NCBI GenBank assembly: GCA_022897995.1
Contig: GCA_022897995.1_4763.1
Length of the DNA stretch: 64,000 nucleotides
Strand: one strand, 5' to 3'
DNA from: a phage
Shown here: piece after piece, positions 139 through 59,245 of the stretch
How positions within the stretch are numbered: the stretch's first letter is position 1
Layout of the letters: each line of letters starts with the position of its first letter
Made by a program: the position numbers and the translations under genes
Notes under the pieces: model-generated
Told to the model about the DNA's origin: nothing
The model's database searches: none
What the model saw: the letters and a program-made list of their open reading frames with translations, nothing else

Positions 139-693
139 ATGAAACGGTATTGTGATGAACATCCAGAAGAATGGAAAGACCTTGTTTATATGGGCGTATC
201 GTATCCAGAATATGAAATTAGTTCTTATGGTAAACTAAGAAATAAAGCCACTGGCAAGGTCAGATCAACTAAAATAACAAAAGGTTATGTCTCTTGTAAT
301 ATCAGAGATTACGCCAACAGAACAAAGTCAGGCAAGCCAAAGACCGTCGGCGTTTATATTCATAGGGCATTAGCAGAAGCATTTATACCAAATCCAAACA
401 ACTACCCTGTAGTAAATCACAAATTTGGTGATAAAAAAGATTTTGATCTGTATGGCCTTGAGTGGACAACACAAAGAGAAAATCTTATACACGCTAAAGA
501 AGAAGGATTGAACAAAAACTATGGAGAAACACACGGAAACGCAAAGTTAACTGACCATCAAGTAGAAGAGATCAGGTCTAAACAGGGTGTTGCGTCTGTA
601 AAAGAACTTGCTGTAATATACGGAGTGCACACGATAACCATAAGAAGAATATGGAAGAGTCAGACCAGAACATCACGATATAAAGAGAGGTGA
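139..693 (+). CDS. HNH homing endonuclease-like protein (Mob/HNH_3-like)
   Basis: 184 aa; motif NHKFGDKKDFDLYGLEWTTQRENLIHA typical of phage HNH homing endonucleases; C-terminal helix-turn-helix-like segment; RBS GAGG upstream. Confidence 0.65.
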   Translation: MKRYCDEHPEEWKDLVYMGVSYPEYEISSYGKLRNKATGKVRSTKITKGYVSCNIRDYANRTKSGKPKTVGVYIHRALAEAFIPNPNNYPVVNHKFGDKKDFDLYGLEWTTQRENLIHAKEEGLNKNYGETHGNAKLTDHQVEEIRSKQGVASVKELAVIYGVHTITIRRIWKSQTRTSRYKER

Positions 694-697
694 TATT

Positions 698-1726
698 ATG
701 ATATACTACGCAGATTGTGAGATTGCAGAGAAGGCGATATATGGTGAGAGAAACTTTAAACGCCTACACACTCAATCATTTACATTGGTATGCTCATGTC
801 CGATCTGCGGAGATTCCAAAAAGAATAGCACAATGGCGCGTTTCAGAATCTACACTTATAAAGACTCGTTACGTGCATCGTGTTTCAACTGTAACTATAA
901 TCAACCGTTAGGTGAATTTCTCAAACAGTATAAGCCGGACCTATTCAGGGAATGGCTTATGGAACGAAGGAAGGAACAAGGCGACCACAAGAACACCACG
1001 TTCAAGCCACTGAAAAAGGTAGAAAAGCCGGAGATTAAGAAAGTGCAAACATTGCCTTTCTGCGAGAGATTAGATACTCTTCCGGCTAATCATCCTATAA
1101 TAAAGTATGTCAGTGATCGCTGTATTCCTCACGATAAATGGGATCTTCTGTATTTCACGAGAGAATGGCAAAAGGTAGCAAATCACATTAAGGCGGATAC
1201 TTTCAAGAATCCACAACCTGAACCGCGTTTAGTGATTCCTATCTTTAACCGCGAGAACAAGATAGAATCCATTCAGGGGCGAGCATTGAGAAAGGATTAC
1301 GGAAAGACCAAATATATGACGATTAAAACTCATGAGTTAGCGAGTAAGGTCTATGGTCTTGAACGCGCCGATCCGAGTAAACCAGTGTATTTCTTAGAAG
1401 GTCCGATCGATTCATTGTTTATTGATAACGGGTGTGCAATTACTGGCGGTACTTTGGGATTAGATGAAATCCCTTTCCCAGACCAGCGAGTGTTTGTACT
1501 TGATGCGGAACCACGGTCTGCCGATACAATGCACCGACTGGAAAAGTTTATCAATGCAGGGGAAAAGATTGTTTTGTGGGACCGTTGCCCGTGGCATTCT
1601 AAAGACGTTAACGCCATGATTCAGGACGAGGGCGCTACACGCGACCAGATCATGGAATATATCAAAGAGAACACCGTACAAGGTCTGATGGCTAAAATGC
1701 GGTTTATGAAATATTGTAAATTTTAA
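698..1726 (+). CDS. 61: DNA primase (T4 gp61 homolog)
   Basis: 342 aa; zinc-ribbon CPICGDSKK...CFNCNYNQP and downstream blocks (PRLVIPIFN, YFLEGPIDSLFI, DVNAMIQDEGAT) match the T4 gp61 pattern as recalled. Confidence 0.9.
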   Translation: MIYYADCEIAEKAIYGERNFKRLHTQSFTLVCSCPICGDSKKNSTMARFRIYTYKDSLRASCFNCNYNQPLGEFLKQYKPDLFREWLMERRKEQGDHKNTTFKPLKKVEKPEIKKVQTLPFCERLDTLPANHPIIKYVSDRCIPHDKWDLLYFTREWQKVANHIKADTFKNPQPEPRLVIPIFNRENKIESIQGRALRKDYGKTKYMTIKTHELASKVYGLERADPSKPVYFLEGPIDSLFIDNGCAITGGTLGLDEIPFPDQRVFVLDAEPRSADTMHRLEKFINAGEKIVLWDRCPWHSKDVNAMIQDEGATRDQIMEYIKENTVQGLMAKMRFMKYCKF

Positions 1727-1734
1727 TTAATGAG

Positions 1735-2259
1735 GTGAATATGTCAGAATTTAATTCTTGTGCTGGTCTGGTTAACGAAAAAGATATTAACGCGGCTATC
1801 GCCGCATATCATCACGCGATTGCAGAAGGTAAAGATCCGTTTCAGGTGATGCTAGAAATGCAAACTGGTTTGCAGGTTGCACTATCCGAAAAATTTGATT
1901 GGGTCCCAAATCCAACTAAGCTAGAGACTTGCGGTGAAATGCTGGATTGGATGCAACGGATGGATGACGCTATCGCAGACGAAACACGAGAGCTTTACAC
2001 ATCGCTGGGTGGAATGTCCAATGGTAAAGATGCAAGTGCAATCTGGAAAATGTGGAAAAAGAACCACGGGGAAGCGCGAGCGCGTAAATTCTCTGAACTG
2101 TCACCAGAAGATCAGCTTGAAGTGAAATTTGAATTTGTGGACGCGATCCACTTCATTCTGTCAAAGATGATCCCGCTGGGTATTAACGCTCAAGAACTCT
2201 TTATTCTGTACTATCTGAAAAATGCTGAAAACTTCGCCCGTCAAGAACGCGGCTACTAA
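1735..2259 (+). CDS. 56: dCTP pyrophosphatase (T4 gp56 homolog, MazG-like)
   Basis: 174 aa; blocks KDPFQVMLEMQ, KLETCGEMLDWM, SPEDQLEVKFEFVD, LYYLKNAENFARQ match T4 dCTPase as recalled; position directly after gene 61. Confidence 0.85.
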   Translation: MNMSEFNSCAGLVNEKDINAAIAAYHHAIAEGKDPFQVMLEMQTGLQVALSEKFDWVPNPTKLETCGEMLDWMQRMDDAIADETRELYTSLGGMSNGKDASAIWKMWKKNHGEARARKFSELSPEDQLEVKFEFVDAIHFILSKMIPLGINAQELFILYYLKNAENFARQERGY

Positions 2260-2266
2260 AAATTAG

Positions 2267-2295
2267 TTGACGCTACTCTATAATGGTTTTATTAT
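2267..2295 (+). promoter_or_regulatory. Putative sigma70-type early promoter (TTGACG, 17 nt spacer, TATTAT)
   Basis: -35 TTGACG at 2267-2272, -10 TATTAT at 2290-2295; immediately followed by hairpin. Confidence 0.35.
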
Positions 2296-2327
2296 GCCTC
2301 CCGTCGAAAGATTGGAGGCTTTTTTAT
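2296..2327 (+). terminator. Rho-independent terminator-like hairpin after gene 56
   Basis: GCCTCC-loop-GGAGGC stem followed by TTTTTTATT; right arm contains GGAGG 10 nt before the ATG at 2329. Confidence 0.5.
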
Positions 2328-2328
2328 T

Positions 2329-2832
2329 ATGCAATTTACACCAGAAGAACTTAACATCATTGATGAAGTGATGAACTCTAAAGAAAATATCGATATGTCG
2401 ATCCTTAATGGATTGATTGAAAAGACTGAGCGGTTAGTGCATCATGAAGCCTTGTATCGCGGTGTGAGCAAAAGAGAAGGCCGTAAGCTGGATACCTTAA
2501 TTGTAGGTGATTCTTTCGTTGTAGAGCGTCCTATGAGCTTTACGCCACTGCAATCAACAGCAGAGGACTTTGCAACCGATGTTTATGCAACAGGAAAGAT
2601 TATTGCAATAAAACCTACCAAGCCTTGCATGAATTATTACGAACATGCTATTGACCGAGTGGTGTCTAAAGAGTATGACAATCCGACTACTCGACTGTCT
2701 TTGTATGCTATGTTGGCAGATGAGCGCGAGTGCATATACAAGACAGGGACGACCATGATCCTTGATGAGATCGAGGAAGTTTACGCGTGTAACGGCGATC
2801 TGATAGAGATTTACAAATTTTCTTTAATTTAA
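2329..2832 (+). CDS. Putative ADP-ribosyltransferase (ModA/ModB-like)
   Basis: 167 aa; candidate R-S-ExE triad (LYRG, SFT/QST, ERE); sits where modA/modB lie in T4 (between 56 and dda). Confidence 0.45.
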   Translation: MQFTPEELNIIDEVMNSKENIDMSILNGLIEKTERLVHHEALYRGVSKREGRKLDTLIVGDSFVVERPMSFTPLQSTAEDFATDVYATGKIIAIKPTKPCMNYYEHAIDRVVSKEYDNPTTRLSLYAMLADERECIYKTGTTMILDEIEEVYACNGDLIEIYKFSLI

Positions 2833-2835
2833 GTG

Positions 2836-2893
2836 TTGACAGCACAAACCAGATAGACAATAATACACACATACCAACTAAGGAGAATCAATT
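2836..2893 (+). promoter_or_regulatory. Early promoter cassette (TTGACA -35, ATAATA -10, conserved leader and RBS)
   Basis: TTGACA at 2836-2841; leader cacacataccaactaaggagaatcaatt shared with other cassettes; no stem-loop in this copy. Confidence 0.5.
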
Positions 2894-3649
2894 ATGAAAC
2901 TGTTTGCTTTTAAATCTAACGAAGAATTGGCGCTGGTTGTTTTCCGGCTGAACTCTATCATGGCTGGTGCTTCACGTCGCAACAAAGACTTCTCTATGAG
3001 CTTAGTCACTGTGCGTAACATTTACCGTCAGACTCATTGCGCCTATTCCGGTGAGGCTTTCGGTGAAGGTGATGATGGACTCTCCTTAGAGCGCATTGAT
3101 TGCAATCTAGGATATGTTGATGGCAATGTAATTCCGGTTAAACTGAAATACAATTCTTTCCGTGGCAATCACACTATCGAATCTCTTAAAGAGATCCAGG
3201 AACTAGGAACTAACGGTAAACTTTCTGATGATGAAATTGCCCTACGTGCGAAGTACATCGAGTGGATCGAACTTAACGAGAATCGCATCAAAAATCAGGA
3301 AATAGCAATCGAAGAAAAGAAGTTAGCAATCGAGCGCCACAAAAAGCACAACGAACCGGAGAAAGCAGAGGCAGCCGAGCGAGCGATTAAAAATACTCTC
3401 TTCCGTATGGAAGAACGTTATCAGAAAATTGCAGATCTCAAGCAAGCCCTTAGCGAAATCAACAAGAAAGAAGAAAAACTTAAGGCTATTGCAAACAATA
3501 CCGAAATCGTGCTAAAATATACCAGCGTTTTGATTGAATCTCTTTCTAAGTATGAGAACTTAACGCCAGCACAAAAAGAACGCGTGAAATACGGGCTTCC
3601 GATTGATGCGTCGTGGATTGAATTGATGAAAGCGAAGGTAGGTTTATAA
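2894..3649 (+). CDS. Hypothetical protein with coiled-coil C-terminal half
   Basis: 251 aa ORF with RBS AAGGAG; N-terminal SLERID...GNVIPV...NSFRGNH weakly His-Me-finger-like; K/E-rich C-terminal half. Confidence 0.4.
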   Translation: MKLFAFKSNEELALVVFRLNSIMAGASRRNKDFSMSLVTVRNIYRQTHCAYSGEAFGEGDDGLSLERIDCNLGYVDGNVIPVKLKYNSFRGNHTIESLKEIQELGTNGKLSDDEIALRAKYIEWIELNENRIKNQEIAIEEKKLAIERHKKHNEPEKAEAAERAIKNTLFRMEERYQKIADLKQALSEINKKEEKLKAIANNTEIVLKYTSVLIESLSKYENLTPAQKERVKYGLPIDASWIELMKAKVGL

Positions 3650-3963
3650 TGCATGTATTTGCTGTATGTTATCGTGATAAAGACGGATTCTTTCAATACT
3701 CAGTGGACGCGAAAGGTCGCGTCCTAACTTGCGAAACACATGATGCTGCGTTAGCGTCAATGTGTGATCAGATAGATTATTGTGAGAGTCTATTGGCGGG
3801 TGAACCGAAATACAAGGTTGTGCCTAAAAGAAAATTTGGTATAATCCGGTCTTCTGAAATTGTTCGGGATGGTATCGAATATAAAATTCCTGAATATGAA
3901 AAAGAACGGGTACGGCGAGAACTCAATACTATCTGTGTTCGCAAGGTGAGGATTTTAGGATAA
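3649..3963 (+). CDS. Hypothetical protein
   Basis: 104 aa ORF; start overlaps the preceding stop (TAATG); same-strand operon context. Confidence 0.35.
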   Translation: MHVFAVCYRDKDGFFQYSVDAKGRVLTCETHDAALASMCDQIDYCESLLAGEPKYKVVPKRKFGIIRSSEIVRDGIEYKIPEYEKERVRRELNTICVRKVRILG

Positions 3964-5354
3964 TGAGCAGAGTATTAACTTTCGATATGTTAACAGACGG
4001 GCAAAAACATGCTTTTGATGTTCTAATGAAACGCATTGAACAAAAGAAGCATACAACTGTCCGTGGTGCGGCGGGTACTGGTAAAACCGCAATGATGAAA
4101 TTCATTGTTCAGGAAATGGTCCGCCGTGGTGTAACTGGTGTGGTTTTGGCAACGCCTACCCACCAGGCTAAAAAAGTTTTGAGTAAAGCGGTAGGTCGTC
4201 AAGCATTTACTTTACATGCACTACTGCGACTAAACCCGACCAACTATGAAGATACTCAAGTATTTGAGCAAAAAGATACTCCTAAGCTAGATGATGTTCA
4301 GATCATCATTGTTGATGAAGCGAGTATGGTCGATAAGAAACTATTTGATATTCTCATGAAGAGTATCAACGGTCGAATTGTTATTATTGCCGTGGGTGAT
4401 CTGTACCAGTTACGACCAGTTGATCCGAGCGGTGCAACGTCGATCTCTCCTTTCTTCACCGATGAAAGGTTTCAGAATGTAGAACTTACAGAGATTAAAC
4501 GATCTAATGCGCCAATAATTGATGTGGCGACCGCTGTCCGTAATGGTAAATGGGTATTCGAAAAGCAGTGCGGTAACGAGGGTGTATTCCATAGCTCAAC
4601 TCTGCCGGAGTTTATGAAGCATTATTTCGAAACCGTTAAAACGCCGGAAGACCTTCTAGAAAACCGTATTCTGGCCTACACTAACAAGAGCGTCGAAAAA
4701 CTCAATGAAATTGTACGTAAGCGCGTTTATAACACCGATGAACCAGTGATTGTAGATGAAATTCTGGTTACTCAGGAACCATTGATCGAATATCTGCGAG
4801 ATGAACGCGGGAAGAAGATCCCCAATGTTATTTTTAACAATGGTGAGATGATCCGAGTTAAAGAGGTCATCCCGCGTGAATTTACATTACGTTGCACGGG
4901 GGTAGATCCGCAACCAGTTTTAGGCTATACTCTGAAAGTGGAAAGCGTCGATGATGACGAAGACAAAGAAATCCTAAATCAGAAAGTCGGTTTAGATGCG
5001 GTCGGAATCACTACAGATAAACCAGATTTAGTAGAAATCAACATTCTGACAGAACAACGTCAGAAGAACATTTTCTCTATCTATCTGAATACGGTCGCCG
5101 GACAATATCGCGAAATGAAGAAAGAGAATCCAAAATTTAAACCAGATTGGGATTCATTCTGGACGATGAAGCGTATGTTCTTGAATGTAAAAGCATTACC
5201 AGCTTGCACCATTCATAAGTCACAAGGGATCAGCGTAGACCGCGTGTTCCTGTATACTCCTTGCATGTGTACAGACAATGTTGACTTTGAATTGGCAATG
5301 CAGTTATTATATGTGGGTGTTACCCGTGCGAGGTATCGAGTAGACTATATTTGA
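3963..5354 (+). CDS. dda: Dda-like SF1 DNA helicase
   Basis: 463 aa; Walker A GAAGTGKT, IIVDEASMV, and C-terminal blocks (KRSNAPIIDVATAVRNGKW, LLYVGVTRARY) match T4 Dda as recalled. Confidence 0.9.
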   Translation: MSRVLTFDMLTDGQKHAFDVLMKRIEQKKHTTVRGAAGTGKTAMMKFIVQEMVRRGVTGVVLATPTHQAKKVLSKAVGRQAFTLHALLRLNPTNYEDTQVFEQKDTPKLDDVQIIIVDEASMVDKKLFDILMKSINGRIVIIAVGDLYQLRPVDPSGATSISPFFTDERFQNVELTEIKRSNAPIIDVATAVRNGKWVFEKQCGNEGVFHSSTLPEFMKHYFETVKTPEDLLENRILAYTNKSVEKLNEIVRKRVYNTDEPVIVDEILVTQEPLIEYLRDERGKKIPNVIFNNGEMIRVKEVIPREFTLRCTGVDPQPVLGYTLKVESVDDDEDKEILNQKVGLDAVGITTDKPDLVEINILTEQRQKNIFSIYLNTVAGQYREMKKENPKFKPDWDSFWTMKRMFLNVKALPACTIHKSQGISVDRVFLYTPCMCTDNVDFELAMQLLYVGVTRARYRVDYI

Positions 5355-5364
5355 GGAAATTATT

Positions 5365-5532
5365 ATGATTATGCGAAGTATCCCAGAATTTAATGATGTG
5401 ACGGTAAGCCGTCACAATGGAACTGTTACCATGTGCTTTAGATGGGGTCTATACGGCTGGAACGTGTCCGGCGATAGTGAAGCTGCATGTATCAATAAAA
5501 TGATCGAGCATTTCACTAAGCGAGGTTTTTGA
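5365..5532 (+). CDS. Small hypothetical protein (55 aa), paralog A
   Basis: ATG after Dda stop; ends ...AACINKMIEHFTKRGF; below ORF-track size cutoff. Confidence 0.3.
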   Translation: MIMRSIPEFNDVTVSRHNGTVTMCFRWGLYGWNVSGDSEAACINKMIEHFTKRGF

Positions 5533-8790: not shown

Positions 8791-9090
8791 ATGAGCAAAA
8801 AGAATAATATGATGATGAGTATGGCAAAGTTTATGGAAGCGGACCTGATCAAAAATACAGTACAACATGAACGCCAGCGAGAAGCCGCAGTGATTGCAGA
8901 ACAAGGTTTTCAGGTTATCCGCAATCCACCTAAAGACACGGTTAAATCGAAATACAGAGACGATCTGAAAGACCATGAAGTACGGGAACTGGTTAATGAT
9001 CTGCGTGACATTGCCATCAAATATCATGGTTATCAGTGCTTACGAGAACTGATTGCATCGCGAGTAATGGATGCCCTGAAAAAAGATTAA
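8791..9090 (+). CDS. Hypothetical protein
   Basis: 99 aa ORF downstream of promoter cassette with RBS GAGGA. Confidence 0.35.
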   Translation: MSKKNNMMMSMAKFMEADLIKNTVQHERQREAAVIAEQGFQVIRNPPKDTVKSKYRDDLKDHEVRELVNDLRDIAIKYHGYQCLRELIASRVMDALKKD

Positions 9091-9096
9091 AATCTG

Positions 9097-9155
9097 TTGA
9101 CACCGGATCGGGGATATATCATAATGTCCCCATCGAAAACAAAAGGTTGACTTAT
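9097..9155 (+). promoter_or_regulatory. PeSL-like promoter cassette
   Basis: TTGACA 9097-9102, CATAAT 9120-9125 between GGGGA and TCCCC arms, leader ccatcgaaaac. Confidence 0.5.
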
Positions 9156-9350
9156 ATGAAACCGTTTAAGAATGAAGAAACTCAAAAATTTTGTGAAAAA
9201 ATTGCAGAAATCTACTTGACAGGGAATAAGGAAAAAGCTAATATTATGTTCAAAGAGTCAGTTTCCATGATGAAAGTAGCACGCTGGGAACTGATCGCAA
9301 TGCAAGACCAAATTCGTTATCTAGTAACAAAGGAGAATCAAAATGCGTAA
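9156..9350 (+). CDS. Hypothetical protein
   Basis: 64 aa from ATG 9156 directly downstream of the cassette; track ORF begins upstream in frame. Confidence 0.3.
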   Translation: MKPFKNEETQKFCEKIAEIYLTGNKEKANIMFKESVSMMKVARWELIAMQDQIRYLVTKENQNA

Positions 9351-9537
9351 CCATTACATCGAACTGACAAGCCGTAGAGTTTCCGATCTGAAAGGCGTAA
9401 TTGCTTACTATGAAGAAGTCCTGAAAAACGAAATTGCCGAGTGGGAACGTAAAGAATACAGCAAGTGCTTAGAGAAAAGCCGCGCTGAACTGGTTGACGC
9501 AGAAGCCCATTTGCAATGGGTGATTGAAAATGTATAA
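9343..9537 (+). CDS. Hypothetical protein
   Basis: 64 aa ORF, start overlaps the preceding stop. Confidence 0.3.
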   Translation: MRNHYIELTSRRVSDLKGVIAYYEEVLKNEIAEWERKEYSKCLEKSRAELVDAEAHLQWVIENV

Positions 9538-51396: not shown

Positions 51397-51459
51397 TTGA
51401 CAGGGGATCACCGATCCCCTATACTACACACATACCGAAACGAACTAGGAGAATCAATT
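51397..51459 (+). promoter_or_regulatory. PeSL-like promoter cassette
   Basis: TTGACA 51397-51402; perfect GGGGATC-acc-GATCCCC hairpin fills the spacer; TATACT 51420-51425; conserved leader. Confidence 0.6.
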
Positions 51460-51639
51460 ATGAACTTCAACGAAATCATCGCTAAAATCCGCTACAACGA
51501 AGAAACCATTGAACTGATGCAAAACAATATCACCAATGGTTATATGATTGCAGCGTCACAAGAAATCATTGATTTGACAGTAGCAGAAAATGCTCAGTTG
51601 AAACATCAACTTTCAACGGCTGGCGTGATTGTTATGTAA
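51460..51639 (+). CDS. Small hypothetical protein (59 aa)
   Basis: ATG 51460 at fixed distance from cassette. Confidence 0.3.
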   Translation: MNFNEIIAKIRYNEETIELMQNNITNGYMIAASQEIIDLTVAENAQLKHQLSTAGVIVM

Positions 51640-51656
51640 TAAAGAGAGGTGACTAA

Positions 51657-51989
51657 ATGGCAAAAGTTCAGGTAGGCGAGGTCTTCAAAATGGAAGACCA
51701 TACCGTAGAAGAGATGAAAGGCGCAGTATTGAAAGTAATTAATTCAATGTGGCGTAGTGTTCTTTACATCAACTTTATCGACGGTGATGTGTGGTGGGCT
51801 AGTGATAACGTTAAATGGGGCGTTAAATGGGACGAAGAAGGCAATATGGTCATCAAGTTCTACAAAGGTCATACTCACTGGTTAGGAACAGAGGATGTTG
51901 TAGAAGTTCTGGCGGTTGATGTTATGCCAGGAGAGATCGAAAGTCTTAGCGGAACCGCAAAAGAAGCATTGACACGCCATTTCGTGTGA
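51657..51989 (+). CDS. Hypothetical protein
   Basis: 110 aa ORF with RBS GAGAGGTGA. Confidence 0.35.
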   Translation: MAKVQVGEVFKMEDHTVEEMKGAVLKVINSMWRSVLYINFIDGDVWWASDNVKWGVKWDEEGNMVIKFYKGHTHWLGTEDVVEVLAVDVMPGEIESLSGTAKEALTRHFV

Positions 51990-52046
51990 TGTAATATAAC
52001 AATCATCGGGAGGGGCAATACTCTCCCACAAATTGAGGATAATATT

Positions 52047-52355
52047 ATGGAACGTACCAATTTGTTTGTAACCGAACCTTTCGTTGAAGGCAACAAGAAC
52101 CTTGCTAATACGGTTATTCTTTACGAAGATTGGATCTTTTACATTGACGAGAATTTAGACGTATATTGTCGTCCAACTCCAAATGACTCATTCTATATCG
52201 AAGAAAACGATACACATAATCATTGGTATAACGGAAACGACGAAACAGACCTTGCTATTGTTCTCGAATCAGGTGTAGAATCGGAACATGCAGATGAAGT
52301 AGCGGATAAATTTGTACAATACGCATATAAAGATAAAGATGAGGATGAAGAATAA
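52047..52355 (+). CDS. Acidic hypothetical protein
   Basis: 102 aa, highly D/E-rich with poly-acidic C-terminus. Confidence 0.35.
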   Translation: MERTNLFVTEPFVEGNKNLANTVILYEDWIFYIDENLDVYCRPTPNDSFYIEENDTHNHWYNGNDETDLAIVLESGVESEHADEVADKFVQYAYKDKDEDEE

Positions 52356-52362
52356 AAAGTTG

Positions 52363-52425
52363 TTGACAGGGGATCGGTGATCCCCTATACTACACACATA
52401 CCAACGAGATATAGGAGAATCAAAA
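52363..52425 (+). promoter_or_regulatory. PeSL-like promoter cassette
   Basis: TTGACA 52363-52368; GGGGATC-ggt-GATCCCC hairpin; TATACT 52386-52391. Confidence 0.6.
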
Positions 52426-52593
52426 ATGTTCCAGACTAAAGCAGAATGCGAAGCATACATTGTAGCAAACCACGGTGAAGACTACCTGAAATTCGATATC
52501 GTAGTAGCACAGAAGATCACCGGAATGGTTGCAAAATATCTGGGTGTTAAAGAAGGTTACTATCCAAGCAACGCACCAGAAATTAACAAATAA
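52426..52593 (+). CDS. Small hypothetical protein (55 aa)
   Basis: ATG 52426 downstream of cassette; below track cutoff. Confidence 0.3.
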   Translation: MFQTKAECEAYIVANHGEDYLKFDIVVAQKITGMVAKYLGVKEGYYPSNAPEINK

Positions 52594-52607
52594 TTTTATA
52601 AAAAGTG

Positions 52608-52676
52608 TTGACAGGGGAGACACCCTCCCCTATAATATACACATCGAAACGAGATACCAATTAGGAGAATCAAACA
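52608..52676 (+). promoter_or_regulatory. PeSL-like promoter cassette
   Basis: TTGACA 52608-52613; GGGGAG-acacc-CTCCCC hairpin; TATAAT 52631-52636. Confidence 0.6.
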
Positions 52677-52928
52677 ATGGCTAACATCGAAACCGCAAAG
52701 AAAATCGCTAAAGACCTGAACGTTAAAGGCTTCCGTAAACTGAAATTACAGCGTGTACGCTACACCATCGGCAAACAGTGCTCTTTCATGAGCGAAGAAG
52801 TTGCTAACAGCCTCATCGATAACCTGATCGCGGCTGGCTGGGAAGTTACGGATCTGAAAACTTGCAGCGAACTGGCTAACAAAGGTCTTTTAGATTCTGT
52901 TACTATCAAACCAATGGGGGCAGCGTGA
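52677..52928 (+). CDS. Hypothetical protein
   Basis: 83 aa ORF downstream of cassette. Confidence 0.35.
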   Translation: MANIETAKKIAKDLNVKGFRKLKLQRVRYTIGKQCSFMSEEVANSLIDNLIAAGWEVTDLKTCSELANKGLLDSVTIKPMGAA

Positions 52929-53641
52929 AACAAAAATTAATATTCTGCAACTTTGACGGATCGGGGATAATGGGGCTAGAATGGGCTAAAGCAGGTCATA
53001 AGGTGATCTGCTTTAATGCTGACGATGGCGACCACGGTACATACAAAAAGTATAATACCAGATTTGAACATCCAAACATTACCTATGTAAACACATGGAT
53101 TGATTTGAACTGGCTGGAAAGAGCAATGGACCTTGAATGGGGGAAACCGGATATTATCTTTGCATTCCCACCGTGCACAAATTTAGCTGTTAGTGGCGCT
53201 GCACACTTTGAACGAAAGAAACGAGAGCAAGGACCATTGATTCAAGTTCATGATGTGAGGGCAGCTAAAATAACCGCTTATTTGGGTGAATGGCTAGGAG
53301 TTCCCTACATGATAGAGAATCCTGTAAGCGTTATCTCTAGCATGTGGCGTAAGCCTGATTACATGTTCCATCCGTGGGAATATGGTGGTTATTTGCCGGA
53401 AGATGATAAACATCCTACGTTTCCTGAGTATATCGCCGCCCGTGATATGTACCCGAAAAAGACTTGCTTATGGACCGGACAAGGCTTTATAATGCCAGAA
53501 AAGAAACCGTTGCCGATTAATAAAGGGTACAGTAAACAGCATTCTAAGCTAGGCGGGAAAGGAACCAGAACAAAGACTATCAGGTCACTTACCCCGCGAG
53601 GATTTGCAAAGGCAGTATTTGAAGCCAATAAGGATCTATAA
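52925..53641 (+). CDS. Truncated DNA C5-cytosine methyltransferase-like protein
   Basis: 238 aa (GTG start overlapping previous stop); motif I-like FDGSGIMG, motif IV-like FAFPPCTNLAVSG (catalytic Cys), motif VI-like MIENPV; no target-recognition domain. Confidence 0.45.
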   Translation: MKQKLIFCNFDGSGIMGLEWAKAGHKVICFNADDGDHGTYKKYNTRFEHPNITYVNTWIDLNWLERAMDLEWGKPDIIFAFPPCTNLAVSGAAHFERKKREQGPLIQVHDVRAAKITAYLGEWLGVPYMIENPVSVISSMWRKPDYMFHPWEYGGYLPEDDKHPTFPEYIAARDMYPKKTCLWTGQGFIMPEKKPLPINKGYSKQHSKLGGKGTRTKTIRSLTPRGFAKAVFEANKDL

Positions 53642-53970
53642 TGAGATTGTTTAAGTATTCTCTAACGTCAAATTACGATAAACAAGGTCATTGCATCCGT
53701 TGCCCTAATTGCCATAGCCATAACATTGAAAGCAAGATCACCGATCATATTGATGGACTTTGGTCGCCAGCAAGCGAGATAGAATACTATTGCGCTGATT
53801 GTGGAATTGTAGTAGCATATTGGGCATACGGATCATATGATCCTTACTTCCAGATGGGAGAGCGTTCAATCCCTGCTCTTATCTGGAGAATTAAGAACAA
53901 TATCCGGCATTCATGGGATGAGTTCTTAAAAGATATTGATTTACGTGATGATCCATTCAGGAGACTATAA
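53641..53970 (+). CDS. Zinc-ribbon protein
   Basis: 109 aa; CIRCPNC...CADCG four-Cys pattern; ATGA overlap with preceding gene. Confidence 0.35.
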   Translation: MRLFKYSLTSNYDKQGHCIRCPNCHSHNIESKITDHIDGLWSPASEIEYYCADCGIVVAYWAYGSYDPYFQMGERSIPALIWRIKNNIRHSWDEFLKDIDLRDDPFRRL

Positions 53971-53971
53971 C

Positions 53972-54487
53972 ATGAACAGATTAACGCCTAAACGCCGTTA
54001 CTATACCAATACTAAAAACTTTGTCATCTCTGTTTATGAGGCGTGGTTAGAAGATGGATATATCAACATGAACCCAGATTATCAGCGTCCTTTAGTATGG
54101 GACACCGAAAACAAACGTATGTTTATCGAAAACCTGATTAATGATTTTCCGGTTGGTGCTATCGCAATGGCTAAGATTGATGATGGCTCTCGCTATGAGA
54201 TCGAAATCGTGGACGGTAAACAGCGTTTAAACGCAATATTCTCTTTCATGAAGGATGAGTTTAGCATTGCTGGTAATGATGATTCTATGCTGTATTACAG
54301 CGATTTTACGCCAGCAGAAAAGCGACGTTTCCGAAATCTCGGACTACCAGCGATCATGATGGAAGAGAGCACACGAGAAGACCGATTAGAGTATTTCTAC
54401 AAAACAAACTTTTTCGGTGTGCCTCAATCGGAAGAACATCGCCAGCACGTAATTGCCCTATTGCAAGATGAGCAATTAAAAAAATAA
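53972..54487 (+). CDS. DUF262/ParB-like nuclease domain protein
   Basis: 171 aa from ATG 53972; NPDYQRPLVW...FPVGAIAM...IVDGKQRLNAIFSF resembles the DUF262 N-terminal domain of GmrSD-type enzymes. Confidence 0.45.
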   Translation: MNRLTPKRRYYTNTKNFVISVYEAWLEDGYINMNPDYQRPLVWDTENKRMFIENLINDFPVGAIAMAKIDDGSRYEIEIVDGKQRLNAIFSFMKDEFSIAGNDDSMLYYSDFTPAEKRRFRNLGLPAIMMEESTREDRLEYFYKTNFFGVPQSEEHRQHVIALLQDEQLKK

Positions 54488-54498
54488 CTAAAAAGTTG

Positions 54499-54563
54499 TT
54501 GACATAACAGAGGGTGTATATCATAATACACCCATACCGAAACGAACTACTAAGGAGTATCAA
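54499..54563 (+). promoter_or_regulatory. PeSL-like promoter cassette
   Basis: TTGACA 54499-54504; GGGTGTAT/ATACACCC 8 bp stem 54512-54533 with CATAAT in loop. Confidence 0.55.
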
Positions 54564-54776
54564 ATGGCTAACATCGAAATCATCATTACCGACGTAACTT
54601 ATGACCGCATCAACGAAATCGGTACTGCATTACTGGAAGATGGAACAACTCGTACCATCAACTACGCAGAATACGTTGAAATGCGCGGTTGGATTAAACG
54701 AGTAGGAAAATATATCCTGATTGAAAAAGACTATTCAGGATACACCTTAGAGCAATTGCTTGATGGTGCATTATAA
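54564..54776 (+). CDS. Hypothetical protein
   Basis: 70 aa ORF downstream of cassette. Confidence 0.35.
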   Translation: MANIEIIITDVTYDRINEIGTALLEDGTTRTINYAEYVEMRGWIKRVGKYILIEKDYSGYTLEQLLDGAL

Positions 54777-54781
54777 TAAAA

Positions 54782-54804
54782 AGGGGGCGTTAAGCCCCTT
54801 TTTC
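54782..54804. terminator. Terminator-like hairpin
   Basis: A-run, GGGGC-gttaa-GCCCC, T-run. Confidence 0.45.
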
Positions 54805-54844
54805 ATAAATATAGGTTTATAGGTTATCAACTAGAGGATATAAA

Positions 54845-56896
54845 ATGTTTAACTTAGAAATCGACGATCTAATGATTGAATCTTTCGAGAAATGGCTGTT
54901 GACGGAAGAGGAAGAAAACTTTGGCAGTATTGCTCCGGTACAGTGCTTAAAGCCTAAGCAGAATCCTAAACAGCTTTTTGCAGTACAGACACGCGATAAA
55001 GATGTGATTGTCCGTCTTTGCAACTTCACCAACAAAACACCTAAAATTGTTCGTATGGGTGACAAGACCGCACATGTTGTACTGTGCGAAATGAACAAAA
55101 GCGGTCGTATTGTACAGCTTAAAAATGGTCTAGGCGATAACCCGATTGCAGTTATGGCAAGTGCTTTTGATGTGGTTATGGAAACAGCCCGTAAAGCGCA
55201 ATTAGACGCTGTTATGTTCCGTTTTAACGTATCCCGCATGAAAGGTAAGACCGAACTGGTTAAGCGCGTTATAGAGCGTTTGGTGCGTCGTACACCGAAG
55301 TTCGAAGTATTCCAGCAGGAAGTAATGACCAGCAAAAAGATCGCTTTGGTTGTTGTCAAGCGTCGCGGGATGGCGATTGATAAGATTAAAGGGATTAAAC
55401 TTGATGATTCCCTGTTCACTAAAGTAGAAAGTGATTTAGGTGATCGCTGGGTATCTAAGGCTACTGGCGAATCTCTGACTAAAGATGAAGCGTATGCGGC
55501 TAGCCTTGCATCAGAAGAAGAACGAAACGCGGAAGCGGAACAACGTGTAGCGGCTAAATCTCGTTTGACTAAAGAAGAAATGCTGAAAACTCAAGCGACC
55601 TATAACAGCGACTATGTGAATCATCCAGAAAAAATTAATCTTAAACCGGAAGAAGATATCACCGAAGCCGAACCTAAGAAACAGTTTAATACTCTGATTG
55701 ATCGTCAAGCCTTAGAACGTTCAACCGCTCGTTCTCTGAATGACTGGACAAGTGATATTATCACTCGCTATGGTTTCATGCGTACTATTTTTGAAAGCGA
55801 AGCCGATGCAAAATACGCAGTAAGCGAACTGGTAAAAGTTCAGGACCAATATGATCCGTTGTCTGCGGAAGTTATCGCAGCATCAATCAAACGCTTAAAA
55901 GAAATCATGAATGAAGAAGTGTTTGAAAACAAGATCACCGCCCTAGCAATGGATCGAGTAGACCAGTCTATGCCAGCAGATGTAAAGGCTGAAATGTTGC
56001 GTAGTCACATCACGCAGATTAAAACCGATGCCCTACGTAATGTTGCTTCCGGTATGTTTGAAGCAATTGCTAGCAACATGGGTGAAATGATGGCAGATAT
56101 TGATCTTGATCTGCCGGGCGCGGAAGGTTTTGTGTTGAGCGAGTATGCCGATGCAGCATACATCAATATGAACAACTTCCTAACCGACCGTAAGCTGGAA
56201 GAGTTTGACGGCATCGCAGATCCAGAAGAATTGGTCAAGATGTGCGATGCACTGGATAATGCCTTCTCTAACTATGGCGTTAAACTTGATCCGGGTACTA
56301 TTCTGTATCGTGGTATGGACTTCCGGTCTCAAATGTGGGAAACTGCACGTAAGCAAAAAGCGTTTTACTTTAAAAACTATGTGAGCACTTCCCTTGCACC
56401 TAACATTTTTGGCGGCTGGAATGCAAACGTGGCTAGTGCCGTTGCTGGTGTTGATTCTATGGCTGGATCTCGCGGTGAAGGTGGCGCTAATGTTGCTTTC
56501 TCCATTGCTGGCGCGGAAAACATCCCTGTATTGCCAGTAGGTAACAAGGCATTTGCTTACAAAGAATGCGAGATTTTACTTCCTCGCGGCGTTGTGTTAT
56601 CCTTTGATACGGTAACTCGTGCCACGGCATCGACGGATTCACAAGAAACTTATTACATTGAGGCACATATTATGAACAAAAATGAACTGGCAGCATTACA
56701 AGAATCTGGCGAGATGATCGCGGACGGTGATGCATTCATCCGTGAAGGTGTTGTTAAACCTGCTTCTGACCTGTCTTTCTCCAGCTTTATTACCGAAGCT
56801 AAAACCGAACGTAAGAAAGCAGATAAGGCAACTCTACGTCAGCTTATCGCTGATCTGGTATCTGTAGACGCAATGCCAGATAAATTTAAAATGTAA
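54845..56896 (+). CDS. alt: ADP-ribosyltransferase Alt
   Basis: 683 aa (T4 Alt is 682); ART triad LYRG...FYFKNYVSTSLAPNIFGGW...ECEILLPRG; position between 30 and the baseplate block. Confidence 0.85.
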   Translation: MFNLEIDDLMIESFEKWLLTEEEENFGSIAPVQCLKPKQNPKQLFAVQTRDKDVIVRLCNFTNKTPKIVRMGDKTAHVVLCEMNKSGRIVQLKNGLGDNPIAVMASAFDVVMETARKAQLDAVMFRFNVSRMKGKTELVKRVIERLVRRTPKFEVFQQEVMTSKKIALVVVKRRGMAIDKIKGIKLDDSLFTKVESDLGDRWVSKATGESLTKDEAYAASLASEEERNAEAEQRVAAKSRLTKEEMLKTQATYNSDYVNHPEKINLKPEEDITEAEPKKQFNTLIDRQALERSTARSLNDWTSDIITRYGFMRTIFESEADAKYAVSELVKVQDQYDPLSAEVIAASIKRLKEIMNEEVFENKITALAMDRVDQSMPADVKAEMLRSHITQIKTDALRNVASGMFEAIASNMGEMMADIDLDLPGAEGFVLSEYADAAYINMNNFLTDRKLEEFDGIADPEELVKMCDALDNAFSNYGVKLDPGTILYRGMDFRSQMWETARKQKAFYFKNYVSTSLAPNIFGGWNANVASAVAGVDSMAGSRGEGGANVAFSIAGAENIPVLPVGNKAFAYKECEILLPRGVVLSFDTVTRATASTDSQETYYIEAHIMNKNELAALQESGEMIADGDAFIREGVVKPASDLSFSSFITEAKTERKKADKATLRQLIADLVSVDAMPDKFKM

Positions 56897-56913
56897 TTTT
56901 TAAGAAATAATGG

Positions 56914-56974
56914 TTGACTCAAACGGGGACTAGTTTTATACTAGCCCCGTTTTCTGTTATATGGGAGGTTTAAA
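56914..56974 (+). promoter_or_regulatory. PeSL-like promoter cassette
   Basis: TTGACT 56914-56919; ACGGGGACTAG/CTAGCCCCGT stem; TATACT 56937-56942. Confidence 0.5.
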
Positions 56975-57799
56975 ATGTTCAAACAATTACAGGATTTTCG
57001 TCTTTCAGAAGAATCACGCGAATCAATGATGGAACGTATGGATAATTACATAGAAACATATGGCATTGAGGGGATTAATGGTTACATGATCACTGAGATG
57101 ATCAGCGATCAGATTAATTTTGATGATTATGTGAAGATTATCCGCTTCCTTGAGCGTGAGACACAAGATTATGGATTTGTCAAGAAAATCATTAATGTGA
57201 TGTATGAAGTACACTCCGAAGATTTTGGAGATAATGTATTCAAACATTACAAACATAACAACATAACCCCAGCAGAATATAATGCAATCTGTGATTATGT
57301 GTCTGAACAATACGAATGGGTAAATGGTGCTCTCTTAGGGGAAGAAGACATGACCGACGAGATATCAGAAATTGTTGATTTGATGGATTGTGTCATGGAT
57401 AAAACCGAAAAGTTAAACGGTACTCTTTATCGCGGTCAACATCTTGACATTCAGACAATAGAGCGTATTATTGAAGATAAGGAATTTACCTTTAAAAACT
57501 TTGTGTCAACCAGCATGACACCAATCATCTTTGGAGGCTGGCTTTCAAATAGCACTAGCCTTTATTGTGAGAATCGATATGAATCCATGACCGGAAAGAT
57601 GCAACATTCTTGTAATGTATCATGGGTAATTGACGTAAAAGATCATAAAGGTTTTGTTGTTGGATCAATTGCATGGAATCCTTGCGAATGTGAAGTAATT
57701 TTACCGCGCGGGACTTGCATAAAGGTAAACGACGTAGTAGAATCCTTCGGCGATGAGAATCGTAGACAATTTACAATTTTCGGTGAGGTGACTAAATGA
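56975..57799 (+). CDS. Short Alt-like ADP-ribosyltransferase paralog
   Basis: 274 aa; LYRGQHLD...FTFKNFVSTSMTPIIFGGW...CECEVILPRG parallel the catalytic motifs of Alt but without its long N-terminal region. Confidence 0.6.
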   Translation: MFKQLQDFRLSEESRESMMERMDNYIETYGIEGINGYMITEMISDQINFDDYVKIIRFLERETQDYGFVKKIINVMYEVHSEDFGDNVFKHYKHNNITPAEYNAICDYVSEQYEWVNGALLGEEDMTDEISEIVDLMDCVMDKTEKLNGTLYRGQHLDIQTIERIIEDKEFTFKNFVSTSMTPIIFGGWLSNSTSLYCENRYESMTGKMQHSCNVSWVIDVKDHKGFVVGSIAWNPCECEVILPRGTCIKVNDVVESFGDENRRQFTIFGEVTK

Positions 57800-58281
57800 A
57801 AATGATTAAACTGATTGGTCTTGCGGCTGCATTCATGCTTACTGGTTGTGCTAACATGGAAGCTATGATGAATGCTAAATCAGATCCGGTTTTCTTGCTT
57901 CGTGAATGTAAAGCAGCATATGCAAGCGATGACCAGATCGAATCGTGCTTTATTTCTAAAATGGAACGTCGAGACGTGGATCGCGTTAAAGTTGGTTTAG
58001 CACCACAAACGCAGATGTTCAAAGATGCGATCAAAGAAGCGCGGGAAGAGAAAGCACGAGAAGAAAAGAAGCGTCAAGAAGAATTGCGCAAACAGAAAGA
58101 AGAGTCTATACAACTTGAGAAGATGAAAGCAAGGGATCGTTGTATTATCATGTCTGACATGCAGATAGAGCAAGAAGCAAGAAAAGCAGCATTAAACGGT
58201 GATTATGACCGTTATGAAGAACTTAACAGCGCAGAATTTCAAGCTAAGGCACTAAAATATTGCAATGATTTAGCAAAATAA
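57796..58281 (+). CDS. Predicted lipoprotein with coiled-coil region
   Basis: 161 aa; signal peptide with lipobox LTGC; K/E-rich coiled-coil central segment. Confidence 0.5.
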   Translation: MKMIKLIGLAAAFMLTGCANMEAMMNAKSDPVFLLRECKAAYASDDQIESCFISKMERRDVDRVKVGLAPQTQMFKDAIKEAREEKAREEKKRQEELRKQKEESIQLEKMKARDRCIIMSDMQIEQEARKAALNGDYDRYEELNSAEFQAKALKYCNDLAK

Positions 58282-58309
58282 AAAGGCGGGGATAATCCCC
58301 GCCTTTCGC
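58280..58309. terminator. Bidirectional terminator between lipoprotein gene (+) and baseplate gene 54 (-)
   Basis: AAAAA, GGCGGGG-ataat-CCCCGCC hairpin, TTTCGC; flanked by converging stops. Confidence 0.6.
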
Positions 58310-58312
58310 TTA

Positions 58313-59245
58313 TCAGAACCAGTTAGTGACAGTATTCACCACACGCCCACCAACGCCATTTAGACGCGATAAAGCATTACCAGCAGCAGATAACCCACTA
58401 TCAAGTAAATTGTTGCCGAAAGTGTTTGTTATTGCGTTTATTGCCTTATCCTCAATCCATTCTCGCGCAGCTTGCTCTCCTACAGCACCAGTTTGCATAG
58501 AACGATATGCAAAAGTAACATCGAATGTTGTGATTTCATTATTGTTTTCATAGGTTAATTCCGGTGCACTCACACCAACAGGAACACAACCATTAAACAT
58601 CATGATCGTGTGAGGTACTCCCATTCGGTTATGTAAGTTGACCTGAATATCTGCTTCAACGTCAACAGGAAGCGCACGAAGCCCTGTAACGGGGTCTTCT
58701 ACTGAGTTAACCCAATCCTGCATTGCTCTATAGTTTGATGCGCTAGAGTCCATTCTAAAGCTCAATACAAGCGGATCAAAATCACGTCCGGTAATTCGAA
58801 TGTTTGGCGCATTGTGGTTACGGTCCATTTCATAACTCAATCTGTTTTCTGGAACCTTAACAGCATACACCAGAAGACCGCTTGTCTTATATGCCATATT
58901 GAACCAGTCAAGCGCATATGTACCAACATCAAATTGCCCCAGAAGAGATTGAACTACGCGGGATGACATTGCACCTAAAAGATACTTTTTGACACCGGAT
59001 GAATCAACAGCACGCCTAACACCCTGTACAGCAAGATTTGTTAATGCGTCCGTATAATCACCGCGAGTAATCCCGAAATAGTCATTTAATGCATTTGGTA
59101 TAATATCATATACCGCACCACCCATACTTTCTAGGATCGCTTGTGTCTTATTACTTGGAGTGGTGGCAAATGCCACGCTGAATAAGTTAGATCGCTGAAA
59201 GTCAAGGTTAGCGGCTTGTTCGTTAAAATCATTTAAATCAAACAT
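58313..59245 (-). CDS. 54: Baseplate tail-tube initiator gp54
   Basis: 310 aa; size and order (54-48-29-28-27-51) as in T4. Confidence 0.7.
   Translation of the reverse strand: MFDLNDFNEQAANLDFQRSNLFSVAFATTPSNKTQAILESMGGAVYDIIPNALNDYFGITRGDYTDALTNLAVQGVRRAVDSSGVKKYLLGAMSSRVVQSLLGQFDVGTYALDWFNMAYKTSGLLVYAVKVPENRLSYEMDRNHNAPNIRITGRDFDPLVLSFRMDSSASNYRAMQDWVNSVEDPVTGLRALPVDVEADIQVNLHNRMGVPHTIMMFNGCVPVGVSAPELTYENNNEITTFDVTFAYRSMQTGAVGEQAAREWIEDKAINAITNTFGNNLLDSGLSAAGNALSRLNGVGGRVVNTVTNWF

Follow-up and report, generated by a model that had tools for sequence, protein, structure and literature searches.

The window, by which we mean the whole 64,000-nucleotide stretch that was analysed, belongs to a Krischvirus of the RB49/Phi1/JSE/GEC-3S type (97-98% nucleotide identity), and we confirmed three real ADP-ribosyltransferase (ART) genes in it: alt, a short Alt-derived ART gene, and one gene for a ModB-like enzyme. 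The original prediction of two neighbouring Alt-type ARTs held, with open reading frames exactly at 54,845-56,896 (683 aa) and 56,975-57,799 (274 aa). The features of this locus are:

54,779 to 54,803, plus strand: intrinsic terminator hairpin AAAAGGGGGCGTTAAGCCCCTTTTT, located by terminator scan and RNA folding, closing the upstream early unit just before alt
54,804 to 54,811, plus strand: late-promoter-like box CATAAATA, 33 nt 5' of the alt ATG, matching T4 TATAAATA at 7 of 8 positions
54,845 to 56,896, plus strand: alt, full-length Alt ADP-ribosyltransferase, 683 aa
56,914 to 56,942, plus strand: early promoter of the sigma-70 type, TTGACT-17-TATACT, preceded by A/T-rich sequence; it supplies the promoter of a PeSL promoter/stem-loop cassette and is annotated as a promoter in GEC-3S
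56,921 to 56,952, plus strand: PeSL stem-loop AAACGGGGACTAG...CTAGCCCCGTTT (RNA fold), then TTCTGTT; putative attenuator or terminator for transcripts leaving alt
56,975 to 57,799, plus strand: short Alt-derived ADP-ribosyltransferase, 274 aa, RB49ORF183c homolog, phrog_15144 (BLASTP, PF03496, alignment, AF2)
57,796 to 58,281, plus strand: predicted lipoprotein, 161 aa, with signal peptide and lipobox LTGC, phrog_16112; second gene of the early unit
58,281 to 58,307, no strand assigned: bidirectional terminator separating the ART-lipoprotein unit from late gene 54, which runs convergently; GEC-3S has it annotated on both strands

The 683-aa protein fits Alt proper in its full-length match to phrog_802 (residues 16-683, E=6.7e-181), its catalytic motifs, the terminator and late-type box ahead of it, and the adjoining genes 54/48. 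It scores 37.3 bits against Pfam PF03496 (gathering score 23.4) and is laid out as an N-terminal alpha/beta domain, a helical region, the ART core and a C-terminal tail ending in KFKM. The motifs read ILYRGM, FYFKNYVSTSLAPNIFGGW and KECEILLPRG, with R489, S514-T-S516 and E574/E576 as catalytic residues. It is a full-length ortholog of T4 Alt (gpAlt, 682 aa, phrog_802), with the same terminator and late-box layout upstream. Ahead of alt, a terminator and a NATAAATA box occur not only in the window but also in T4 and in a diverged metagenomic relative, L003; at the place of the window's box stand TATAAATA in T4 and AATAAATA in L003. The conserved upstream terminator was listed by Nolan et al. 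(2006). We infer that the CATAAATA box is used as a late promoter.

Pairwise comparison of the two Alt-like proteins, proposed as a check, gave a BLASTP match of 37% identity over 109 aa (E=1e-16), far beyond chance. The catalytic motifs quoted in the original prediction are present in both proteins, and in the short one they read TLYRGQ, FTFKNFVSTSMTPIIFGGW and CECEVILPRG, with a catalytic set of R153, S178-T179-S180 and E238-C-E240. Lack of the Arg or of the ExE in the short open reading frame had been named beforehand as the refuting observation. Instead, the catalytic Arg, the STS and both Glu of the ExE are invariant in an alignment of 11 sequences (A1) that combines short forms with full-length Alts, among them T4 Alt, and the catalytic residues of the short form are likewise invariant across homologs down to 41-49% identity. 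In T4 Alt, activity was abolished by mutating the later of the two ExE glutamates ('E577A'; PMC11404850); placed by motif position only, this residue corresponds to E576 in the T4 strain compared and to E240 in the short protein.

The short protein scores 58.6 bits against PF03496 (gathering score 23.4), with residues 82-266 aligned to positions 2-187 of the 196-position profile. A sequence search of solved structures returned only marginal matches for it (Tre1 at E=0.058, SpvB and Vis), and NCBIfam gave no match for any of the four proteins searched. Its AF2 model (pLDDT 81.9, pTM 0.81) was matched by Foldseek against the PDB to Vis (4xzk, E=6e-11) and C3bot2 (2e-10), and further to Certhrax, CDTa, iota and Tre1, all with probability 1.00. 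The model thus predicts a C3/VIP2-like ART fold, which together with the R-S-ExE set is common to T4 Alt and the short protein. The R-S-E ART toxins of PF03496 (C3 exoenzymes, Vis, Certhrax, iota/CDTa/VIP2, Tre1) have the same fold and active-site motifs at 12-20% identity; they are secreted toxins or type VI secretion (T6SS) effectors and not early proteins of a phage. In C3 enzymes the motif is QxE and the target asparagine; the short protein has ExE.

By HMM mapping the short protein spans Alt residues ~323-611, or positions 332-602 of phrog_802, and its best family is phrog_15144, not phrog_802. The long N-terminal part of Alt is indeed missing, as had been noted: the short protein begins at the equivalent of Alt residue ~323-332, and the N-terminal region of ~320 aa, with its nearly invariant G87, P100, R126 and G134, is absent. 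It also lacks the conserved C-terminal ~75 residues of Alt, a point that the earlier reading did not contain. In the alignment the short forms end 8-12 residues past the last core strand and have no DGD...ETG...P-KF tail. The description as a stand-alone catalytic domain is nearly accurate: besides the ART core (82-266), the protein carries ~80 N-terminal helical residues that can also be aligned with Alt. Compared with T4 Alt, the short protein differs in the loss of both termini and in having an early-type rather than a late-type promoter.

The short ART and its tie to alt are already known, and the window adds one more Krischvirus isolate. RB49ORF183c (NC_005066, 111492-112313; 'ADP-ribosyltransferase' in RefSeq/PHROG, phrog_15144) is the same gene, with 98.5% amino acid identity and the same neighbours, and Nolan et al. 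(2006) described it as a paralogous duplication of the adjoining alt; beyond that paper we found nothing on RB49ORF183c in the searchable literature. The gene is present at at least 97% identity in 59 of 59 Krischvirus records. Its dN/dS is 0.069, against 0.044 for alt, so it is under purifying selection. L003 has the same succession of Alt, short ART, lipoprotein and gene 54, at protein identities of 46% for Alt, 49% for the short ART and 38% for the lipoprotein. In the tree the short forms make up a clade of their own (bootstrap 100/100) that branches outside all full-length Alts; in 1 of 100 replicates it groups with the Alts of Krischvirus. A recent tandem duplication of the neighbouring alt is rejected by this tree, and the sequences indicate that the short gene is an old, functional derivative of alt. 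The protein database also contains a variant truncated to 76 aa (P0010), which may mean that the gene is dispensable in some isolates or that the record is in error.

The promoter cassette predicted between the two genes proved to be real, with TTGACT-17-TATACT overlapping a GGGG...CCCC hairpin that folds at -21.7 kcal/mol (z=-2.8). In RB49/phi1, where the PeSL class was described, experiments showed that such elements serve as strong early promoters and as terminators (PMC2839356). The promoter of the short gene is one of 20 of its kind in the window, all on the early (+) strand and 0 on the other. No TATAAATA-like box lies upstream of the short gene; the sigma-70 PeSL stands in its place, and L003 has a counterpart, TTGACA-17-TATACT, with an equivalent hairpin ahead of its own short gene. 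The short gene also has its own ribosome-binding site. The ATG of the lipoprotein gene overlaps the ART stop codon (ATGA), an arrangement for translational coupling, and the two genes are predicted to be co-transcribed.

A third candidate ART had been placed in the modA/modB position, and its region of the window contains:

1,735 to 2,259: gene 56 homolog (ORF list, PHROG)
2,329 to 2,832, plus strand: ADP-ribosyltransferase of the ModB/ModA type, 167 aa, catalytic residues R44, S70 and E132-C-E134 (phrog_832, E=1e-20)
2,894 to 3,649: srd (ORF list, PHROG)
3,963 to 5,354: dda (ORF list, PHROG)

This placement was borne out, as a homolog of ModB/ModA lies between the gene 56 homolog and srd, upstream of dda. 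BLASTP matched the 167-aa protein to T4 ModB with 33% identity over 113 aa (E=8e-11) and to T4 ModA with 23% over 159 aa (E=2e-6). R44, S70, E132 and E134 are invariant in a separate alignment (A3), in register with R72 and E163/E165 of ModA and with R73 and E171/E173 of ModB. The genes run 61, 56, mod, srd, an open reading frame, dda in the window and modB, modA, srd in T4; relative to T4 ModA/ModB (200 and 207 aa) the gene thus occupies the same genomic slot and keeps the R, S and ExE. Two stretches of the T4 Mod proteins have no counterpart in the 167-aa protein, ~30 residues at the N-terminus and an insertion of ~12 residues, and by tblastn there is one mod-type gene in Krischvirus records against two in T4. 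The homolog is annotated as modB in RB49 and ECD7, and Pfam PF26816 is precomputed on homologs; the 167-aa protein itself gave no match in the local Pfam copy, in NCBIfam or in a sequence search of solved structures. Structure prediction covered the two Alt-type proteins, and the 167-aa protein is assigned to the ADP-ribosyltransferases by its sequence. The short Alt-like ART resembles ModA/ModB only as a small, predicted early, non-packaged ART, their homology being that of a shared superfamily.

We consider it probable, with some reserve, that the 274-aa gene encodes an active, early-made, non-packaged arginine ADP-ribosyltransferase acting in the Mod time window. The phage would then use three NAD+-dependent R-S-ExE (cholera-toxin/C3-like) ARTs at different times of infection. 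Alt, behind its late-type promoter, would presumably enter the phage head, as T4 Alt does, and be injected when the next cell is infected. The short gene, an old alt derivative reduced to the helical region plus the catalytic core, would be expressed early because a strong sigma-70 promoter/stem-loop cassette of its own precedes it, so that the short ART and the lipoprotein would appear de novo in the first minutes of infection, the ART probably remaining outside the virion. It would likely mono-ADP-ribosylate arginines of host cytoplasmic proteins in the same window as the ModB-like enzyme. A precedent exists in T4, where injected Alt and early ModA/ModB share the labour (PMC10468400). We infer the enzymatic activity, arginine specificity, early timing, absence from the virion and target, and the loss of the Alt terminal domains is suggestive of non-packaging. 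The searchable literature yielded no expression, virion-proteome or enzymatic data on the short ART gene, and no virion proteomics or transcriptomics of RB49-like phages. The short ART may have a distinct target, as originally proposed; the only pointers are its different expression class and the loop after the STS (185-196), which is family-specific and modelled with low confidence.

If the short ART were instead a second packaged internal head protein, injected like Alt, then two ARTs would be present at time zero. The gene derives from alt and is its neighbour, on the border of the late baseplate cluster, and the PeSL hairpin is possibly leaky, allowing some late read-through expression from the alt promoter. 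The N-terminal RLSE12 resembles the (L/I)xE prohead-protease site, with similar triplets in the first 13 residues of P0003, P0004, P0005 and P0012; most short forms have, within this stretch, an (L/I)-x-E triplet reminiscent of the site cut by the T4 prohead protease, which fits packaging equally well. Such triplets are, however, common in acidic helices, and the N-terminal sequence of the short forms is not conserved across the family. A Krischvirus consensus for capsid targeting or cleavage was sought from the RB49 internal-protein (ip) genes, but none are annotated within 1-86 kb, and the too-common (L/I)xE triplets were not counted as evidence. Since the N-terminal domain and C-terminal tail of all full-length Alts are missing, and since the dedicated early promoter and insulating hairpin are kept in a relative with 49% protein identity, we regard packaging as unlikely.

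Other readings of the short gene fared less well. A different substrate, such as a nucleic acid, a small molecule, or an acceptor for NAD-capped RNA as donor (RNAylation like that of ModB), is improbable in our estimation: the closest matches by structure are toxins directed at proteins or at arginine, there is no sequence hint of nucleic-acid binding, and arginine is the residue modified by those ExE enzymes of the Alt/C3/Vis group whose targets are known. In its favour stand the family-specific 185-196 loop, modelled with low confidence, and the transfer of NAD-RNA by T4 ModB, also an R-S-ExE enzyme, and weakly by Alt (PMC10468400). Least probable by far is that the open reading frame is a decaying remnant without enzymatic role. 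Duplications at the alt locus near genes 54/48, as in Krischvirus, are seen in the tandem full-length Alt-like genes of T2, in alt.-1/alt.-2 of T4 and in ORF187c/188c of 44RR, and the T4 annotation calls alt.-1/alt.-2 an old partial alt duplication; the 76-aa variant could be read in the same way. Yet what T4 has is a copy of the beginning of alt, without the ART core, and both T2 copies are full length, whereas the Krischvirus copy consists of the catalytic half alone and has acquired a PeSL promoter. The dN/dS of 0.069, the invariant catalytic residues, the confident fold prediction and the gene's own promoter and ribosome-binding site all argue against decay.

An extension of the early, non-packaged reading, which we hold to be possible but rather doubtful, is that Krischviruses, with their single Mod-type gene, rebuilt the three-enzyme ADP-ribosylation programme of T4 out of other components. 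The ancient, early, PeSL-driven catalytic-half copy would substitute for ModA, completing the modification of RNA polymerase alpha, or would act on a new host target, for example a defence protein, with the envelope lipoprotein as its partner in a conserved two-gene early module. As a discovery the short gene carries little weight, because both it and its kinship with alt are recorded in Nolan et al. (2006), RefSeq and PHROG; the finding is correct but ordinary, since all three genes were already annotated and noted in 2006. A late-type full-length Alt and an early-type catalytic-half copy in one phage offer a natural experiment that could tell the packaging parts of Alt from the catalytic ones, and the same contrast could show in what way ADP-ribosylation is distributed across the infection cycle in relatives of the T-even phages.

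A toxin-immunity pair of ART and lipoprotein was set aside, as a periplasmic or outer-membrane lipoprotein would be unable to neutralise a cytoplasmic ART; profile matching with Pfam and PHROG detected no ADP-ribosylhydrolase or macro domain, which also speaks against such a pair. The lipoprotein belongs to a family of unknown function (phrog_16112), is annotated as 'putative lipoprotein' in phage W115, and has a homolog in the same position in L003 (38% identity, E=2e-30).

A nucleotide comparison of positions 54500-58400 returned 59 phage records that matched over the full length at 95-99% identity. All 59 were RB49-type phages (Krischvirus: RB49, Phi1, JSE, GEC-3S and others), and region 600-5400 likewise matched phages of this type. 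The arbitrary start point of the RB49 record falls inside the window; in that record modB lies at 8917-9420 and the short ADP-ribosyltransferase (ART) gene at 111492-112313. The ORF list placed three ART genes at the coordinates that the original prediction had assigned to them. The genes and signals considered here are:

2329-2832: third ART, 167 aa
54779-54803: terminator hairpin upstream of alt
54804-54811: CATAAATA, directly after the terminator hairpin
54845-56896: alt, 683 aa
56914-56942: promoter TTGACT-17-TATACT in the interval from alt to the short gene, with an A/T-rich stretch on its upstream side
56921-56952: hairpin AAACGGGGACTAG/CTAGCCCCGTTT, interlaced with this promoter (-21.7 kcal/mol, z=-2.8)
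56975-57799: short ART, 274 aa
57796-58281, plus strand: predicted lipoprotein, 161 aa, its start overlapping the short-ART stop (ATGA), with lipoprotein signal MKMIKLIGLAAAFMLTGC

Both Alt-type proteins exceeded the gathering score of Pfam PF03496 (ADP-ribosyltransferase exoenzyme), and BLASTP aligned them at 37% identity over 109 residues (E=1e-16). Among PHROGs families, the window Alt belonged to phrog_802 (Alt-like, E=6.7e-181) and the short ART to phrog_15144 ('ADP-ribosyltransferase', E=1.5e-196, full length), the latter also matching positions 332-602 of the 674-position Alt profile. We aligned the short form and five stand-alone homologs (database proteins P0002-P0006) with two longer homologs (P0007, P0008) and the C-terminal halves of the window Alt, T4 Alt and a metagenomic Alt. 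Y152-R153, S178-T179-S180, E238 and E240 of the short ART were invariant throughout. The alignment therefore did not turn up the loss of the conserved Arg or Glu-x-Glu that the original prediction had named as evidence against itself, and the catalytic region of Alt is retained as proposed. In T4 Alt, the 'E577A' substitution at the second Glu of ExE abolished activity (PMC11404850); going by motif position, this residue appears to correspond to E576 of the T4 strain used here, a Glu that shares its alignment column with E240 of the short ART.

The short ART corresponds to Alt residues ~323-611. The long N-terminal part expected to be absent is indeed missing (~320 residues), a region well conserved in 56 full-length Alts with G87, P100, R126 and G134 nearly invariant; the C-terminal ~75-residue tail (DGD...P-KF) is missing as well. 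An AlphaFold2 model built on a nine-sequence alignment was confident (mean pLDDT 81.9, pTM 0.81) and showed seven helices (12-143) followed by a beta core (150-272), with a single low-confidence loop (185-196) directly after the STS motif. A Foldseek comparison of this model with the PDB returned Vis, C3bot, Certhrax, CDTa, iota toxin and Tre1 (probability 1.00, E down to 6e-11). In the AlphaFold model of full-length Alt (pLDDT 85.4), an N-terminal helix (residues 4-20) leads through disordered residues 21-25 into an alpha/beta domain (about 30-205); a long helical region comes next, and then the ART core (487-609) and a helical tail. Within residues 1-27 of this protein (54845-54925), the Glu of L19-T20-E21 is nearly invariant in the 56 full-length Alts and, with L19 two residues before it, forms an (L/I)-x-E triplet. 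We regard it as a candidate site of propeptide cleavage in the Krischvirus Alt; the triplet is like I4-T5-E6, where the prohead protease is presumed to cut T4 Alt.

We considered whether the short ART was a recent copy of the adjoining alt, and rejected this. In a neighbour-joining tree of the region common to short forms and Alts (100 bootstrap replicates), the stand-alone forms of 271-288 aa were monophyletic in 100/100 replicates and the Krischvirus and metagenomic-relative Alts paired in 99/100, while these two groups joined in 1/100 only. When 1.8 billion representatives were scanned exhaustively with HMMER, no more than a handful of clusters were stand-alone, and almost every other relative was an Alt of 600-710 aa; in cultured phages, close short-ART matches (E <= 1e-40) were confined to the 59 Krischvirus records. 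The diverged metagenomic contig L003 encodes a short-ART homolog (49% identity) in the order Alt (46% identity), short ART, a 159-aa protein 38% identical to the window 161-aa ORF, and then convergent genes 54 and 48. Against GEC-3S, the short gene had a dN/dS of 0.069, compared with 0.044 in alt and 0.125 in the gene downstream. The kept gene order and the ratio of 0.069 indicate that the short gene is old, maintained and under purifying selection.

Other truncated relatives were also seen. P0007 (415 aa), P0008 (316 aa) and P0032 (380 aa) lack the N-terminal domain and keep a DGD…KF-type C-terminal tail, and P0012 (264 aa) is a stand-alone form clustering with the short clade (bootstrap 92/100), so Alt has been trimmed in several ways in T-even-like phages. 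The 76-aa P0010 shares 96% identity with short-ART residues 1-72 (counterpart 56975-57190), after which the two sequences part (…VKKIKKKF). Either some assembly contains a frameshifted or truncated allele, or this record reflects a sequencing error; if the allele is real, the short gene is dispensable in that isolate.

The terminator-then-box layout upstream of alt recurs at T4 alt, with the canonical late box TATAAATA, and at L003 alt, with AATAAATA; a conserved terminator at this place was also listed by Nolan et al. The promoter cassette anticipated between alt and the short gene was found at 56914-56952, and L003 carries an equivalent TTGACA-17-TATACT with a GGGG/CCCC hairpin. By its sequence we assign this element to the PeSL ('promoter-early stem-loop') cassettes of RB49 and phi1, which have been shown to be strong sigma-70 promoters with stem-loops that are efficient terminators (PMC2839356). 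A simple pattern scan for TTGAC(A/T)-N16-18-NATANT gave 20 matches in the window, all on the plus strand and 0 on the minus strand, including 51397, 52363, 52608, 54499 and 56914; several have a GGGG...CCCC hairpin between the hexamers, as in the PeSL cassettes of Arbiol et al. 2010, and the three at 51397-52608 are near-identical.

T4 Alt is loaded into heads and injected (PMC10468400; PMC9503650), and by analogy alt would be a late gene whose product enters heads and is then injected. The short gene would be insulated from the alt transcript, and host RNA polymerase would transcribe it as soon as infection begins. The protein newly made in this way would be an ExE-type (arginine-directed) mono-ADP-ribosyltransferase of the cytoplasm, probably active at the same time as the one Mod-type enzyme of the phage. 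The main alternative, which we consider less likely, is that the short ART is packaged like Alt: most family members carry an (L/I)xE triplet near the N-terminus, but the Alt-specific domains are missing and the early promoter is conserved, both of which argue against packaging. A literature search found no Krischvirus virion proteome. That this Alt-derived early enzyme replaces ModA or has a new host target seems to us unlikely, and would be of moderate interest if true.

The original observation is confirmed and its interpretation supported; the gene and its relationship to alt were already known. Nolan et al. 2006 regarded RB49ORF183c, 44RRORF188c and T4 alt.-1/alt.-2 as apparent paralogous duplications of alt, and RefSeq names the short gene 'ADP-ribosyltransferase' in RB49, Phi1, JSE and GEC-3S and the 167-aa gene 'modB'. 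In phage T2 (L009, 1-3834) a tandem pair of full-length Alt-like genes lies upstream of genes 54/48, whereas T4 retains only the alt.-1/alt.-2 remnants of a duplication of the first part of alt. Every element was therefore on record. We found no statement elsewhere of the short form's loss of both termini or deep branching, or of its conserved PeSL promoter or coupling to a lipoprotein gene; these four points are refinements and not a new kind of system.

The third ART, proposed to occupy the modA/modB position, is a ModB/ModA homolog lying between the gene 56 homolog and srd, the same place as modB, modA in T4. It had zero matches in a local copy of Pfam and in NCBIfam, and belonged to phrog_832 (E=1e-20), with E=8e-11 to T4 ModB and E=2e-6 to T4 ModA. 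Its R44, S70 and E132/E134 align with ModA R72, E163/E165 and ModB R73, E171/E173, and relative to both it is shorter by ~30 N-terminal residues and one internal insertion. By tblastn, one mod-type gene was detected in each Krischvirus record.

Downstream, the 161-aa ORF (phrog_16112) is translationally coupled to the short ART, with the same position in the relative sharing 38% identity, and has a lipobox LTGC, four more Cys and a Lys/Glu-rich middle. A bidirectional terminator separates this two-gene unit from gene 54. The lipoprotein may be an early envelope or exclusion protein. Cor superinfection-exclusion lipoproteins show weak similarity to its N-terminus, in the signal peptide only (E=0.0077). 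Close to the alt region on its upstream side, the plus-strand gene 53936-54487 follows a DNA methyltransferase-like gene (52925-53641) and encodes 183 aa with an N-terminal DUF262/GmrSD_N (ParB-like) domain alone (PF03235, E=5e-20).
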